64,000 bases of DNA, taken from NCBI GenBank assembly GCA_964610125.1, contig CAZSUV010000001.1, positions 319,877 to 383,876 of the forward strand. The letters are read 5' to 3'. The notes below the pieces were generated by a model. The model worked only from the letters and a program-made list of their open reading frames with translations. It searched no databases and was not told where the DNA came from. Each line of letters opens with the position of its first letter. The first letter of the stretch is position 1. Below, piece after piece: positions 3,140 through 24,390 of this stretch. This DNA comes from an uncultured Candidatus Saccharibacteria bacterium. GTDB taxonomy: Bacteria; Patescibacteriota; Dojkabacteria; SC72. A program made the position numbers and the translations under genes.

Positions 3140-3216
3140 GCGAGAGTAGTTCAGTTGGCTAGAACGACACATTGCCAATGTGTAGGTCGCGGGTTCGAAC
3201 CCCGTCTCTCGCTCCA
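3140..3216 (+). tRNA. tRNA-Gly (anticodon GCC), CCA encoded
   Basis: Acceptor GCGAGAG/CTCTCGC, anticodon stem ACACA/TGTGT with loop TTGCCAA, T-loop TTCGAAC. Confidence 0.9.
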
Positions 3217-3224
3217 TATTCAAA

Positions 3225-3578
3225 ATGAAACAATTACCTATTAAACCTACAATAACGATTGAAGACCTTGATAAGGTGGATATTCGTGTTGGTACTATAG
3301 AGAAAGTTGAAGATATGCCTGAATCCAAAAAACTTGTTAGATTAACCGTAGATTTCGGAGAATTCAAAAGAAATATTCTTGTCGGAATGAAATTGGAGAG
3401 GGAAAACCCTAAAGAAATTGAGGGAAAACAAGCTCTATTTGTTGTAAACCTTGCCCCGAGAGAAATGCTTGGCGAAATTTCCGAAGGAATGATTTTTGAT
3501 ATTGGATACAGTAATGAAATTATTCCTGTACTATCTGAACCAGAAAAACCAGTTCCCAATGGATCTTGTGCTGGATAA
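3225..3578 (+). CDS. tRNA-binding domain protein (CsaA/Trbp111/EMAP-like OB fold)
   Basis: 117 aa. DIRVGTIEKVEDMPESKKLVRLTVDFGE...RNILVGMK resembles the tRNA-binding domain found at the MetRS C-terminus and in CsaA. It lies immediately downstream of two tRNAs. Confidence 0.65.
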   Translation: MKQLPIKPTITIEDLDKVDIRVGTIEKVEDMPESKKLVRLTVDFGEFKRNILVGMKLERENPKEIEGKQALFVVNLAPREMLGEISEGMIFDIGYSNEIIPVLSEPEKPVPNGSCAG

Positions 3579-20045: not shown

Positions 20046-21125
20046 TTATGCGATTTCATCAAGGAAAACATCCCCTTCAGATGATTCTTTTGCAGAGATG
20101 TAATATGTGCCTCTTCCTTGTCCTTTGGCTTTTATATATCCCTTTTCTACCATATCTTGAAGGTCTCTGTATGAGGTCATGAATGAGATTCCCATCATCT
20201 TGGTATATTTATTCCTTGTTACTTTAAAGTTTACTGCAAGGTAATCCAAGAGCTTTATCTGTCTTGGATTGAGCAATACCTCTATGGCTCCCTGATTCTT
20301 TACCTTTTTAATATGTGTATCCTTGTATTCTCTAGATACCTCAATGGCATTGTAAGAAATGGTATACAGGAATGCTTCTAAGAACATTGTTAAATCGTGT
20401 TTGCCTTTGGAGAGCTTGAATGCAGAGGTTAGGTCATCTCCAAGGTACTCTAATGCTTTGGCATATGGGAAGATGTTGTCTGGATTGTAACCGTAGTTCT
20501 TTGCCAATATTTCCAATGTTAGAATTGCAGTCATTTGATTGCCTGCTAGGAATGGTGCTTTGTCTATGAACTCATACAGAAGAATTCCTAGTTTTATGAG
20601 GAAGTGGTTGTGATCTTTCCCATTCTTTACCCATTCGAATACATCATTGAAGTAGTCGTGTGGGTCTACATTTGGGTAGAAGTCTCTGAATTTGTACCAT
20701 GTGTCATATATTTCATTTGGTTTTTCACTAAATCCTCTGAGTTTAGCTAAATCCCAATCATCTGCAATGTTCTTCATCAATATCTTGTTTATGTGTGTGC
20801 TTAACTCTATTGAGGGTTTTAATGCGTTAGTTAATCCATATGAGTTTATGAAGTCTTTTACGTTTCTAAAGTTTGTGAATATTTTTAGATTTTTTCTTTG
20901 TGATGGTTGTTCTTGTCCTCTTTGTATTTGTAATGCTTTGTTGTAACCTACTGGGTATCCAATTATTTCTCCTAACTTCTCTGTGTCTTCTGCATCATAT
21001 TTCTCATGTAGTACTGTTTTGTATTTTTCTGGTAATGGGAAATGATTTATATCTGCTACTGCTAACTCATATTTGATGAGGTAATTGAGTATGAGGCTTG
21101 TTATTGTGTATTGTGGTGTTTTCAT
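20046..21125 (-). CDS. Fic/Doc-family protein with degenerate active-site motif and C-terminal winged helix
   Basis: APFLAGNQMTAI occupies the position of the canonical HPFx(D/E)GNGRxxR. The C-terminus NKYTKMMGISFMTSYRDLQDMVEKGYIKAKGQGRGTYY is the typical Fic-associated wHTH. The ORF-track start at 21203 runs antisense through tRNA-Thr, so I take Met at 21125. Confidence 0.5.
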   Translation of the reverse strand: MKTPQYTITSLILNYLIKYELAVADINHFPLPEKYKTVLHEKYDAEDTEKLGEIIGYPVGYNKALQIQRGQEQPSQRKNLKIFTNFRNVKDFINSYGLTNALKPSIELSTHINKILMKNIADDWDLAKLRGFSEKPNEIYDTWYKFRDFYPNVDPHDYFNDVFEWVKNGKDHNHFLIKLGILLYEFIDKAPFLAGNQMTAILTLEILAKNYGYNPDNIFPYAKALEYLGDDLTSAFKLSKGKHDLTMFLEAFLYTISYNAIEVSREYKDTHIKKVKNQGAIEVLLNPRQIKLLDYLAVNFKVTRNKYTKMMGISFMTSYRDLQDMVEKGYIKAKGQGRGTYYISAKESSEGDVFLDEIA

Positions 21126-21145
21126 CTGTGTATATATATTTAATA

Positions 21146-21218
21146 AGCTAATGGGTGGCCTCGAACCACCGACCTTTCCCTTACGAAGGGATTGCTCTAC
21201 CAACTGAGCTACATCAGC
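21146..21218 (-). tRNA. tRNA-Thr (anticodon CGT)
   Basis: Reverse complement GCTGATGTAGCTCAGTTGGTAGAGC..TCCCT-TCGTAAG-GGGAA..GGTGGTTCGAGGCCACC-CATTAGC-T. Confidence 0.85.
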
Positions 21219-21325
21219 TTAATGTAACGATATTGTAACAAGTGAGAGAGTATATCACAAGGCGAACATACAATTAATTGTGTTAAAGAGAAAAATATTT
21301 TTAAGTGAGGAAACTATTATTTGCG

Positions 21326-22243
21326 TTATTTTACTATTCCAATCCACTCATTGTTTCTACTAAAGTAATTGAATCCATCAGAGCTATCAGAAATAAAGTA
21401 TCCTATCCAACTGTTGGTTTTGTCAAAAACGATATAATTTGATTGATTATTTTTAATTGCATATCCTTGTTGTTGATTGTCTAAATTGTAAATTAATTTG
21501 ATTTCATCATTAGCATCAATAATATATCCTATTTTCTGGTTGTTTCTTTCAAAAAGAGAGAAACCATTAAAGTTTGGATTAAATGTTGGATTGATTACGT
21601 GATTAAAAACAGGGTTAATAGTATGGTTGTAAACAGGATTAATAGTGTGGTTGTACACAGGATTAATAGCGTGGTTATACACAGGATTAATAGCGTGGTT
21701 GTACACAGGATTAATAGCGTGGTTGTACACAGGGTTAATAGTGTGGTTGTACACAGGGTTAATAGTGTGGTTGTACACAGGGTTAATAGTGTGATTGTAC
21801 ACAGGGTTAATAGTGTGATTGTATACCGGATTTCTACCTTCTAAGTTTCTAGCAGGAGAACTAAGTATTTTTTGAGACACTAAAATAATTGCTTCGTATA
21901 TGTTAATTCCGGCAATTTCTGTATTTTTTAAATTCACAGCGGATTCTGTTACTTTTATAGTTCTGTTAAATGATGTTACAAAATGGTCTTCGGTAGAGAG
22001 AAAAGTTATTCTTGCGATACTGTTTAATTCTTCTCTAACAAGTGAATTTCGTATCTTCTCGAGCCAGTAATTCAGGATATTAATTCGGTTAGCACGATCA
22101 ATCCATGGACTACTGATAACAATTGTCCATTTATTGGCTTCTGAGTCTATTTTCATCAAAAGAAAGAGAGCGATTTCTCCTTTTTCTGTTGATATTTGTT
22201 TTATTAGATTTAATAATTTGTTTACCATTGTGTTGACATCCAT
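21326..22243 (-). CDS. octapeptide tandem-repeat protein (13x NPVYNH[TA]I) with an N-terminal globular domain and a C-terminal W-I-G-Y beta-repeat region
   Basis: Translation shows 13 consecutive NPVYNHTI/NPVYNHAI units. The C-terminus has three xWIGYxxD-like repeats. Start taken at Met 22243 (alternative 22228). The upstream part of the track ORF overlaps the HEPN gene. Confidence 0.5.
   Translation of the reverse strand: MDVNTMVNKLLNLIKQISTEKGEIALFLLMKIDSEANKWTIVISSPWIDRANRINILNYWLEKIRNSLVREELNSIARITFLSTEDHFVTSFNRTIKVTESAVNLKNTEIAGINIYEAIILVSQKILSSPARNLEGRNPVYNHTINPVYNHTINPVYNHTINPVYNHTINPVYNHAINPVYNHAINPVYNHAINPVYNHTINPVYNHTINPVFNHVINPTFNPNFNGFSLFERNNQKIGYIIDANDEIKLIYNLDNQQQGYAIKNNQSNYIVFDKTNSWIGYFISDSSDGFNYFSRNNEWIGIVK
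21599..21840. repeat. 24-bp tandem repeat, ~10 copies (ACAGGRTTAATAGYGTGRTTGTAC), coding for the octapeptide repeats
   Basis: Direct inspection: the repeat unit recurs with only G/A and C/T transitions. Confidence 0.9.
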
Positions 22244-22650
22244 GTATGAAACCCCCACCTTCTTGATGTGAGAGCTAATATTAATTCTCGAGATTGAATT
22301 TGAGAGTAAGTTCCAGAGGGTTGGTATCTTTGCTCTGGGCGCCATTGAGTTAATAATAACCAGTTAGTGTATAATTTTTTCTTTGAAATATTGGTTATAT
22401 TTACTTCTCTTTGTAATCCAGATAGTAGTAAGAGCCTATCGAAATCATGTGAACTAAAAATTGGTTTAAAGTCTCCAGTATCAGGATATTCTGAAATATT
22501 GAGATGTTTACATATACGTGCTTTTAAAGCTAGTTCTACCACATAGCCACATAAATATGCCGCTCCATCGTATAGCCCATTCCTATGCAGCACGCGTGCT
22601 TCTTTTAGCCTTACTTCGGCTAGAATTTTGAGATCATTATATTTAAGCAT
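22222..22650 (-). CDS. HEPN-domain protein
   Basis: LKEARVLHRNGLYDGAAYLCGYVVELALKARI...SSHDFDRLL closely parallels the HEPN consensus (A..LL..GLYDGAVF.AQQAAEKALKALL...THDL). Start set at Met 22650 because the track ORF N-terminus is antisense to tRNA-Gly. Confidence 0.6.
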   Translation of the reverse strand: MLKYNDLKILAEVRLKEARVLHRNGLYDGAAYLCGYVVELALKARICKHLNISEYPDTGDFKPIFSSHDFDRLLLLSGLQREVNITNISKKKLYTNWLLLTQWRPEQRYQPSGTYSQIQSRELILALTSRRWGFHTWMSTQW

Positions 22651-22676: not shown

Positions 22677-22752
22677 TGGAGCGAGAGACGAGATTCGAAC
22701 TCGCGACATTCTCCTTGGGAAGGAGACATTCTACCAACTGAATTACTCTCGC
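22677..22752 (-). tRNA. tRNA-Gly (anticodon CCC), CCA encoded
   Basis: Reverse complement GCGAGAGTAATTCAGTTGGTAGAAT..CTCCT-TCCCAAG-GGAGA..GCGAGTTCGAATCTCGT-CTCTCGC-TCCA. Confidence 0.85.
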
Positions 22753-22857: not shown

Positions 22858-23970
22858 ATGAGCGATTTTGAATCATCAGAAGAAATAAATAATCAGCCCA
22901 TTGAAAATACTAATACAGATTCAATATTACAAAAATTTGCGAAAATGATTTCGCATAAATATACGACAGATATAAAGGATTCGACCTACCCAGAATTAGA
23001 GATTATAGATGAAAACTCCGATGGGAATATTCTTAGTAATTCAAATGAAAAAATTTTAATATCATCGGGATACGAAAGCGCGTTTGGATATAGTTCGGAG
23101 GGCTTTGCAGAAGATATAGCCAAACAAAAATCTATAGCGGATTTTGTGATTCAGAAGTTTGCTTGCAAGGGGAGAGGTGATTTCTTAGATGTGGGTTGTG
23201 GCTCAAATATACATATTGCTGATAGATTCGCCGAATCGGGAATACTTTCATTTGCAATTGATGCCCATCATCTTGATTCTTCCACTGGGGAAAGTCTATG
23301 GTCTGAACCAAGATTAAAAAATGTATCAGCCAATGGGGCTGAAATATATAGTGGTGATATTGCTGCGATTGAGGGTCAAAATAGCCAACTTAGTGGTCGA
23401 AAGTATGGGGCAGTACTTTTTAATGGTTCATGGGCTTCAGGTGGAAATAATTTCACTGTAGCTGGTGAAATCATGGAATTTAAACATTACGATAAAGGTG
23501 GCGATAGAAATGAACTTCTCCCATTCATGGATGAAGAAAAAAATAAAATACTGAAAGCATGTAAAGAGCATTTGACCCCAAATGGAGTTATGGGAATAAT
23601 TTCCTCAAGATATGCTTTTCATGGTGCGGGATACTCTTTTGACCAGTATCCTGATGAAAAACTTAGTTTTGTTGATCTATATTCCCGATTTATGGATTTA
23701 GGAGCCAAGAAAATTTATATTGTGGGACTATCCCAGGAAGGACTTGATAAACTCCTACCGAGAGAAGAAGAATTTGATGAAAAAACAAAAATTATCCGTA
23801 ATCAACTCAAATCATGTAAGAACCTCCCTATAGTTGATCTATATATTAATATTGGATCTGACCATGATGGATTCGAAAAAGAGCTAATAAAAAAGACATT
23901 GGGCAAAGTTGGAGAAATTCCTGCGTTGGATAAGATAGCAAGAATAGACGCTATATTTGCGGAGTTTTAA
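22858..23970 (+). CDS. class I SAM-dependent methyltransferase-like protein with acidic N-terminal region
   Basis: Motif I FLDVGCGSN, motif II-like AVLFNGSW and LTPNGVMGI. 370 aa. Confidence 0.4.
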   Translation: MSDFESSEEINNQPIENTNTDSILQKFAKMISHKYTTDIKDSTYPELEIIDENSDGNILSNSNEKILISSGYESAFGYSSEGFAEDIAKQKSIADFVIQKFACKGRGDFLDVGCGSNIHIADRFAESGILSFAIDAHHLDSSTGESLWSEPRLKNVSANGAEIYSGDIAAIEGQNSQLSGRKYGAVLFNGSWASGGNNFTVAGEIMEFKHYDKGGDRNELLPFMDEEKNKILKACKEHLTPNGVMGIISSRYAFHGAGYSFDQYPDEKLSFVDLYSRFMDLGAKKIYIVGLSQEGLDKLLPREEEFDEKTKIIRNQLKSCKNLPIVDLYINIGSDHDGFEKELIKKTLGKVGEIPALDKIARIDAIFAEF

Positions 23971-24021: not shown

Positions 24022-24390
24022 TTATTTGTTAAACTCTGTCTTAACCATATCCCAATCATTTCGTAACTGAGTGCCTAATTTCTTAGCAGCTTCTGCAGTT
24101 ACAACACCATCCTGCTTAACCTCATCAATAACCTCATTAACTAAATCCATATACTTAGATTCATCTAACTTTGCTCCAAGTTTCTTTACATTAGCTAATT
24201 TCTTTTCCATCATCTTTCTTGTAGCTGTATACATATCAACAGCCTTCTCTGTATATTCCTTAGCTAACTTTTTAATATCCTCTTGTGTCTCCTTACCAGA
24301 CTTAGGTGCTAAAAGAATACCAGCTGCAGCTCCAGCGATAGCTCCAATGAATAGTCCTTTCAAAAATGAAAATGCTTTGTCTCCGTCCAT
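24022..24390 (-). CDS. YtxH-like (DUF948) membrane-associated protein
   Basis: N-terminal GLFIGAIAGAAAGILLAPKSGKETQEDIKK and a coiled acidic/basic C-terminus. 122 aa. Confidence 0.6.
   Translation of the reverse strand: MDGDKAFSFLKGLFIGAIAGAAAGILLAPKSGKETQEDIKKLAKEYTEKAVDMYTATRKMMEKKLANVKKLGAKLDESKYMDLVNEVIDEVKQDGVVTAEAAKKLGTQLRNDWDMVKTEFNK

Follow-up and report, generated by a model that had tools for sequence, protein, structure and literature searches.

What a HEPN-domain protein does in tandem with a long octapeptide-repeat protein, in a pocket between two tRNA genes, is the question raised by a two-gene locus on contig CAZSUV010000001.1 of an uncultured Candidatus Saccharibacteria bacterium. 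The locus lies in a stretch of 64,000 nucleotides (nt), which was analysed as a whole and is called the window here. An earlier note, made from the letters of the window alone, described the two genes as a same-strand pair bracketed by tRNA-Thr and tRNA-Gly. ARAGORN and the list of open reading frames (ORFs) agreed with this layout: there are only two sizeable ORFs between the tRNAs, and all four genes are on the minus strand. We tentatively read the pair as a conserved, translationally coupled cassette that serves as a toxin-antidote or defence-like system, in which the HEPN protein has a partner other than an MNT nucleotidyltransferase. The features of the locus are the following.

22677-22752, minus strand: tRNA-Gly(CCC), found by ARAGORN, on the same strand as the HEPN gene and ending 26 nt before it
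22222-22650, minus strand: gene 1, a HEPN-domain protein of 142 amino acids (aa), PF05168 / HEPN-T type (ORF list, Pfam)
21326-22243, minus strand: gene 2, the partner protein, likely 305 aa, with a start chosen from a Shine-Dalgarno-like site, homologue N-termini and overlaps
21833-22243, minus strand: N-terminal alpha/beta domain of the partner, about 125 aa plus linker (alignments, AlphaFold2)
21569-21832, minus strand: eleven tandem units of 24 nt / 8 aa, consensus NPxxNxxI (Tandem Repeats Finder, in-register count)
21326-21568, minus strand: C-terminal beta domain, about 80 aa, ending EWIGIVK, plus the stop codon (model)
21145-21219, minus strand: tRNA-Thr(CGT), found by ARAGORN, the downstream boundary of the cassette

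The architecture is not a product of chance, as numerous unrelated contigs share it. Hidden Markov models (HMMs) were used to score the best 80 metagenomic HEPN loci, and the 76 with at least 150 nt of downstream sequence were counted. A gene with the partner N-domain was found directly downstream and on the same strand in 75 of these 76 loci, as a rule with a 22-nt overlap. The partner was a short, stand-alone protein of about 130 aa in 52 cases and a long one in 14, and it was cut by the contig end in nine. The co-occurrence of both genes in other genomes, on which the earlier note had staked its proposal, was thereby established, although the repeat protein turned out to be a derived form, most partners having about 130 aa and no repeats. 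An overlapping downstream gene accompanied all seven HEPN proteins examined, from 100% to 47% identity, as well as genome locus L107. In the reverse direction, HEPN lay upstream of two of three distant partners, and the third (L263) is an orphan without HEPN, beside a PIN-like gene. In L260 (2056-2519), the HEPN gene is split by a frameshift and the downstream partner is intact, which reflects either gene decay or a long-read indel error.

The HEPN family gave at least 271 word-index matches and at least 530 confirmed metagenomic loci, and its named members belong to Patescibacteria, Omnitrophica, Beggiatoa and Candidatus Parabeggiatoa. A search of IMG/VR by peptide patterns confirmed no member, whereas PHROGs and one GenBank phage do carry the family. 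Distant HEPN copies (34-38% identity) are present on the Acinetobacter johnsonii plasmid pAJ4131 (L345, 2492-3291), beside BrnT/BrnA, and in Klebsiella phage Kp4864-1 (L346, 2453-3288). In both cases the next ORF overlaps the HEPN gene; it has 134 aa on the plasmid (22-nt overlap as annotated) and about 123-140 aa in the phage. The two downstream ORFs resemble each other; the partner HMM matched neither, and their hhalign alignment with the partner family was collinear, but not significant. These pairs may represent a deeper branch of the same cassette. In RefSeq, the plasmid copy is labelled 'HEPN domain-containing protein' plus 'hypothetical protein'. The cassette shows what is expected of a generic two-gene, type II-like module: the genes are small, co-oriented and overlapping, and the pair is conserved across unrelated genomes and mobile elements.

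The earlier note placed the start of gene 2 within or just after the HEPN stop, and both candidate start codons overlap the HEPN gene. The open region of gene 2 spans 21326-22345. An ATG at 22241-22243, within the 3' end of the HEPN gene, yields a 22-nt overlap and 305 aa, and is preceded at suitable spacing by a Shine-Dalgarno-like AGGTGGGGG at 22252-22260. The alternative ATG at 22226-22228, which is the start called on identical Logan contigs, yields a 7-nt overlap and 300 aa. We took 21326-22243 as the likely gene because of the Shine-Dalgarno-like site, the N-termini of the homologues, which share the five extra residues and begin MDKETMV or MAEKVMV, and the 22-nt overlaps that are also called in L012, L015, L017, L262 and L345. 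The sequence of the junction (22241-22260) suggests translational coupling of the HEPN and partner genes.

The similarity of gene 1 to HEPN proteins survived the profile search. The strings quoted in the earlier note (GLYDGAAY, ELALKARI and SHDFDRLL) are all present in the 142-aa product, which matched Pfam PF05168 with 28.1 bits (cut-off 22), over the first half of the profile only. All 46 family members tested matched PF05168 (46/46, best E 4.4e-11). The HEPN protein also matched phrog_5737 (E 6e-19), and 43/46 members matched PADLOC PDC-M28A weakly. A sequence-profile search of the PDB retrieved no solved structure related to the family. Residues R14, E17, Y27, D28, G29, E39, K43, H68, W103, R108, Y109 and W142 are invariant in the family alignment. 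The canonical Rx4-6H motif is absent from this alignment: R108 is followed by Y109, with no His within 4-6 residues, and the invariant H68 lies upstream of this pair. Of the RNase toxin that the earlier note had assumed, the HEPN assignment stands and the RNase motif does not, so an RNase activity is to be inferred rather than taken as given.

A HEPN-T/AF0298-like variant has been described in which the motif has lost its His but retains its basic residue, and another conserved His is located upstream (PMC3710099). Anantharaman et al. (2013) proposed an alternative active site for this variant, and motif-less HEPN proteins were toxic in a genome-scale screen (PMC3710099). With its PF05168 match, R108 kept, the motif His absent and H68 upstream, the window family fits this variant, the match in the window covering only half of the domain. 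Proteins of the described variant are stand-alone, or occur together with MNT or fused to it, unlike the present family, which is tied to an unannotated partner. In three comparisons, the HEPN proteins were 81, 63 and 59% identical and the partner N-domains 58, 44 and 38% identical, so the HEPN protein is the more conserved member of the pair.

The N-terminal domain of about 125 aa that had been proposed for gene 2 was recovered in the alignments, and it is common to the repeat-bearing partner and the stand-alone partners of about 130 aa. A word-index search with this domain alone missed the family, and an alignment of seven sequences from neighbouring loci retrieved 112 proteins. All of the names supplied for these read 'hypothetical protein', and no Pfam domain is present in any of them. 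Pfam and PADLOC scans of 103 members, together with a profile search of the PDB, returned nothing consistent. As the earlier note had remarked, the partner has no nucleotidyltransferase motif: the GS/DxD motif is absent, the conserved residues do not form it, Pfam NTP_transf_2 matched 0/103 members, and hhalign gave a probability of 0.1% against one bona fide MNT (from L312). HTH, RHH and AbrB domains were also absent from the partner in the Pfam scan. Neither Pfam, NCBIfam, PADLOC and PHROGs nor the PDB sequences and papers searched gave a description of the domain, which bears out the impression that this pairing is an unrecognised one. Literature searches on octapeptide repeats in toxin-antitoxin systems, and on HEPN in the Candidate Phyla Radiation and in Thiomargarita, yielded nothing relevant.

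The long partners consist of the N-domain, NPxxNxxI units and a beta domain, and are concentrated among the nearest HEPN relatives (at least 54% identity). Judged by sequence, they are a repeat-bearing subclade centred on Patescibacteria-like genomes, the window included. The array of the window (residues 133-220 of the 300-aa form) contains eleven in-register units instead of the thirteen first counted: nine copies of NPVYNH(T/A)I, then NPVFNHVI, then NPTFNPNF. Tandem Repeats Finder reported a period of 24, 9.3 copies and 94% matches, with central units near-identical in DNA and diverged units at the edges. Within a unit, positions 1 and 5 (Asn), 2 (Pro) and 8 (aliphatic) are conserved across phyla. 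The full-length model had a predicted local distance difference test score (pLDDT) of 93.5, rising to 96-98 in the repeat region, a confidence that AlphaFold may overstate on near-perfect repeats, to the disadvantage of our reading. Apart from periodic one-turn helices, DSSP assigned almost no helix or strand to this region. The model of the C-terminal domain has eight strands that pair into four hairpin repeats, and WIG is present in just two of these; the three xWIGYxxD repeats of the earlier note are corrected accordingly.

Exactly eleven units were counted in 60 of 150 representatives (<50% identity), with a maximum of 12, and many of the 11-unit arrays are built of non-identical units. 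The complete metagenomic long forms with imperfect, reliably assembled units also have eleven. Perfect-repeat arrays show 7-9 units, and some relatives 3 to at least 6. Several short-read contigs (L001-L003, L004, L006-L009, L013, L014 and L019/L020) end or carry Ns inside the array. Such ends and Ns in perfect-repeat arrays indicate that the lower counts arise from assembly collapse. On the sequences compared, the array is a fixed-length domain and not a variable linker. The variation among strains that the earlier note had envisaged gave way to a number fixed near eleven across very divergent sequences, some variation among close strains being still conceivable; the free copy-number variation of a phase-variable or contingency locus was not seen.

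The module formed by the array and the beta domain reaches far beyond HEPN cassettes. When the C-terminal 96 aa were used as query in an exhaustive search, 219 clusters at 50% identity (E<=1e-3) were retrieved. Among the 138 complete proteins in the best 150 of these 219 clusters, nine carry the HEPN-partner domain, about 103 a RelE/ParE-like domain, and 26 no N-domain or a short leader. ParE_toxin was the only recurrent Pfam match of the RelE/ParE-like domain (5/83 members, best E 5e-5). An N-terminal hydrophobic leader, read as a signal peptide, is present in 2/150 proteins (P0259 and P0269) and in many proteins of a genome scan. The C-domain alignment was too divergent to serve as a locus query, and a DNA pattern alone also returned many unrelated repeats; the scan therefore combined a degenerate DNA pattern for five consecutive units (four full units and the start of a fifth) with HMM filtering. 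The module was found in the Bacteroidota Puia, Flavihumibacter, Flavipsychrobacter, Agriterribacter and Paludibacter, where most copies have a hydrophobic leader, some are tandem paralogues, and the Paludibacter copy is leaderless. Further carriers were Verrucomicrobiota, Kofleriaceae, Palleronia marisminoris and Acetobacter. The Bacteroidota loci L050, L074, L079, L115 and L140 hold leader versions, one of them lipoprotein-like, with tandem pairs and eleven units that are all different. The leader implies an extracytoplasmic role for the module in these organisms.

Searches of the databases did not connect the module with any described fold. A structural search of the PDB and BFVD gave no match below E 0.03. 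The partner of the window matched no Pfam family at E<=1 and, in NCBIfam, only RcGTA_tape, which was not significant (E 0.07, 12.8 bits, cut-off 220). Among 83 other module-bearing proteins, no Pfam repeat family recurred at E<=0.01, and the NP-octad module was not found in Pfam, NCBIfam, PADLOC, PHROGs or the literature.

The scheme that we favour assigns the roles as follows. The upstream HEPN-T protein would be the likely effector, probably acting on RNA via a non-canonical site made up of R108 and H68. The partner would bind it through its family-specific alpha/beta N-domain of about 125 aa, and would restrain it by direct protein-protein contact. Nucleotidylation is not the proposed means of restraint because the partner lacks nucleotidyltransferase motifs. 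In the subclade of the window, the partner appears to have gained a fixed-length C-terminal module, in which the eleven NPxxNxxI units are predicted to form a regular, solenoid-like rod that is neither alpha nor beta, followed by the four-hairpin beta domain. This module is portable, being found on RelE/ParE-like and secreted proteins as well, and would most likely serve self-assembly or the binding of a ligand or trigger. We also consider it possible, with considerable reserve, that the partner domain constitutes a new, non-enzymatic class of HEPN antidote separate from MNT, and the module an undescribed fold that works as a portable assembly or trigger-binding device, attached to two or more unrelated toxin-system domains (those of the HEPN partner and of the RelE/ParE-like proteins) and to secreted proteins of several phyla.

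Several points weigh against a cassette of this type. The effector gene comes first, an order opposite to that seen in MNT-HEPN and in most type II pairs. The HEPN protein is devoid of Rx4-6H and may be catalytically inert. A DNA-binding domain, as found in typical type II antitoxins, is missing from the partner. By analogy with the RelE/ParE-like domain, a usual toxin fold to which the module is fused elsewhere, the repeat protein could itself be the effector. The cassettes of the window and of L017 are found inside tRNA and ribosomal-protein gene strings, a setting that a housekeeping role on RNA would fit too. Compared with the N-domain, the C-domain shows no hypervariability, which disfavours a fast-evolving phage sensor. 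Finally, the data show the pairing, the domain anatomy, the lack of MNT features, the constant number of repeats and the portability of the module, whereas toxicity and neutralisation, the identity of the toxin, physical binding and the module's role are inferred.

The alternative that best withstands these data is a reversed polarity, in which the role of effector or toxin falls to the downstream protein, and HEPN is an antidote, a regulator or a substrate-binding subunit, as in the type II gene order. The upstream gene is the usual antitoxin position, which HEPN occupies here, and HEPN domains that accompany nucleotidyltransferases as non-catalytic subunits have been described (PMC3710099). 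The missing Rx4-6H motif would suit such a role, and the module is mostly found on RelE/ParE-like toxin-fold domains, with 103 of the 138 complete proteins having an N-domain other than that of the HEPN partner. However, it is the HEPN protein that is more conserved, and its invariant polar residues (R14, E17, D28, E39, K43, H68, R108 and Y109) are typical of an active or binding site. In the partner N-domain, in contrast, invariant polar residues are few and no catalytic motif can be recognised. The orphan partner without HEPN in L263 would also be tolerated more easily as an antidote than as a toxin. We consider reversed polarity unlikely.

The genomic settings bear on a second alternative, according to which HEPN and its partner form an RNA- or nucleotide-binding complex for tRNA or rRNA handling, co-transcribed with translation genes. 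The window cassette lies between same-strand tRNAs, and no terminator-like site was found from tRNA-Gly(CCC) to the HEPN start. The composition shows no anomaly, as GC is flat across the cassette region (about 0.30-0.38). In L017/L018 (3001-3779), a cassette with a short partner sits 4 nt after ffh (SRP54) and before rpsP-KH-rimM-trmD-rplS, among the most conserved translation-gene strings. Non-catalytic RNA-binding HEPN proteins such as MtlR are also documented (PMC3710099). Yet the flanking genes differ at almost every locus examined. One cassette adjoins a transposase of the insertion-sequence type and an integrase, another is surrounded by PIN genes and a STAND ATPase, and that of L107 directly follows a DNA methylase. 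Other copies are on a small plasmid, beside toxin-antitoxin genes, and in a phage; the cassette is patchily distributed, and one of its copies carries a frameshift. The varied flanks, the mobile contexts and the patchy distribution are hallmarks of mobile, dispensable modules, and a housekeeping complex is accordingly doubtful.

The earlier note regarded the tRNA-bracketed pocket as a classic defence or toxin island. An integrated island at the tRNAs was rejected, since there is no GC shift and a search for att-like direct repeats found none. In the closest relatives (81% HEPN identity; L004 and L005), tRNA-Gly(CCC) is again upstream of the cassette, and the cargo between them is an EamA gene, or an unannotated gene and an APH-family gene. 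These differing genes indicate that the region adjacent to tRNA-Gly(CCC) is variable, though without the classical marks of an island.

The third alternative supposes that the partner N-domain is a dead MNT, and the cassette a decayed type VII HEPN-MNT system (HepT/MntA) that works by sequestration only. The overall design is similar: a small, co-oriented, overlapping pair of a HEPN protein of about 140 aa and an alpha/beta partner of about 130 aa, mobile and patchy in distribution, with a conserved Tyr beside the motif Arg. This Tyr, the invariant Y109, is reminiscent of the AMPylated Tyr in HepT; there is no transferase in the cassette. The AlphaFold2 model of the N-domain, calculated from the 103-sequence alignment (pLDDT 89, predicted template modelling score 0.82), has the topology H-E-E-h-H-h-E-H-E-E, that is, a helix, a beta-hairpin, helices, a strand, a helix and a second beta-hairpin. 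When two models were searched against the PDB with Foldseek, the best matches were MNT chains of HEPN-MNT complexes (7ae2_B, 7ae9_E/F/G/H, 7aer_A and 6m6u_A). These matches were weak and not significant (probability 0.6-0.8, E about 0.02, TM-scores 0.28-0.41), and the model lacks the GS-bearing helix between strands 1 and 2. The earlier note had asked whether the domain is a cryptic MNT or antitoxin fold. On the sequence side, the answer is negative, given the Pfam scan of 103 members, the PDB profile search and hhalign; on the structural side, Foldseek is weakly suggestive.

Further differences separate the two systems. The partner has neither the GS nor the DxD motif and no sequence-profile relation to MNT, and the HEPN protein has no Rx4-6H motif. 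The MNT gene is normally 5' of the HEPN gene in HEPN-MNT (PMC3710099), whereas HEPN comes first, with the partner 3' of it, in the window as in every one of the 75 paired loci. As the partner shows no MNT features, neutralisation by AMPylation is not expected here, and descent from a type VII system seems rather improbable.

It is very improbable that the octapeptides are an unstructured, hypervariable contingency or linker region of incidental length: central units 94% identical in DNA, as in recently homogenised arrays, the relatives with 3 to at least 6 units and the short-read contigs breaking inside the array would suit it, but they are outweighed by the count of exactly eleven, bounded at 12, which also holds for arrays of all-different units, by the eleven units of the reliably assembled long forms, by lower counts confined to collapse-prone perfect repeats, by the retention of Asn1, Pro2, Asn5 and aliphatic 8 across phyla, and by the confident, if only predicted, model of the region.

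The toxin-antidote cassette that we propose can be compared with two other kinds of known proteins. In fused CapRel-type systems, a toxin-antidote domain has an added C-terminal sensor or regulatory domain. The likeness is a functional analogy, with a small toxin-antidote-type domain followed by a C-terminal domain that possibly senses a trigger or controls assembly. There is no relation in sequence or fold, and the extra domain is here on a separate partner, occurs also on secreted proteins, and is not hypervariable. The C-domain identity was 63, 46 and 38% in three comparisons, the same rate as that of the N-domain, and a hypervariable sensor role was rejected on this ground. Pentapeptide-repeat, hexapeptide and RTX beta-roll proteins are short-unit solenoids with conserved Asn and aliphatic positions and a fixed number of units. 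The present array shares with them short tandem units, conserved Asn and aliphatic positions, a regular predicted conformation and a constant unit number. It differs in its 8-aa period (NPxxNxxI), in matching no Pfam repeat, PDB or BFVD entry, and in the near absence of beta structure in the repeat part according to DSSP. The Pfam and NCBIfam profiles of the pentapeptide, hexapeptide, RTX and WG/KWG beta repeat families were not matched by the partner of the window.

Two variant arrangements were observed around the partner and the module. In L275 (1649-2275) and L277 (3392-4024), which have identical partner sequences, the N-domain is followed by a coiled coil of about 70 aa, with a weak FlxA-like Pfam match, in place of the module; this suggests that the C-terminal extension serves assembly. 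In a sister system (L021, 6619-7823, minus strand; L038, 3612-4699, plus strand; L208, 4400-5460, minus strand), a small gene overlaps the start of the gene for a RelE/ParE-like protein, which bears the same module of eleven NP-octapeptide units and beta domain. The small upstream protein (85-130 aa as called) was seen in 3/3 loci and has hydrophobic stretches that are read as membrane-spanning. It has a conserved C-terminal DYCxAYxRS...IPxxIE motif and belongs to no Pfam family. One sister copy is on an IMG/VR contig, beside a CI/LexA-type repressor. The HEPN cassette and the sister system share a common plan, a small upstream protein followed by an adaptor domain fused to the module.

In the surroundings of the cassette, a promoter-like site (22792-22764) and a hairpin are located upstream of tRNA-Gly(CCC), and another promoter-like site (21260-21232) is near tRNA-Thr(CGT). 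Downstream of the cassette are gatB and a Fic/DOC plus HTH protein. The latter (355 aa, 20046-21113, minus strand; 24.2 bits, cut-off 24) is directly downstream of tRNA-Thr, has an HTH-like C-terminus, and is a potential toxin-type or AMPylating neighbour. On the other side and the opposite strand, an ORF of 370 aa (22858-23970, plus strand) has no Pfam match and contains a DVGCGSN stretch that resembles motif I of S-adenosylmethionine-dependent methyltransferases. It adjoins the cassette on the identical contigs L001-L003 as well. An empty-site comparison through this ORF found no metagenomic relatives in a pattern scan. The next ORF (24022-24390) encodes 122 aa, bears the label YtxH on the identical contig L002, and is followed by RNase HII. 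Elsewhere in the window, at 3140-3251, the tRNA-Ser(tga) that ARAGORN placed on the minus strand overlaps tRNA-Gly(gcc) on the plus strand and is probably a false positive.

HEPN-MNT pairs are regarded as one of the most abundant kinds of toxin-antitoxin system, with AMPylation as the model case of how such toxins are neutralised. Here, a HEPN family of more than 500 metagenomic loci is locked to an unannotated partner in the opposite gene order. If this is a true toxin-antidote pair, it would represent a second way to control HEPN effectors. The family, which is devoid of the canonical motif, is also suited to testing the alternative active site that has been proposed for HEPN proteins. Short-read assemblies systematically break or collapse at the array, with the result that metagenomes contain too few calls of these genes, and the word-index protein search missed them. 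The module, with no Pfam entry and no PDB or BFVD match, extends over at least 219 clusters and is carried by both cytoplasmic toxin-type and secreted proteins, which makes it worthy of structure determination.

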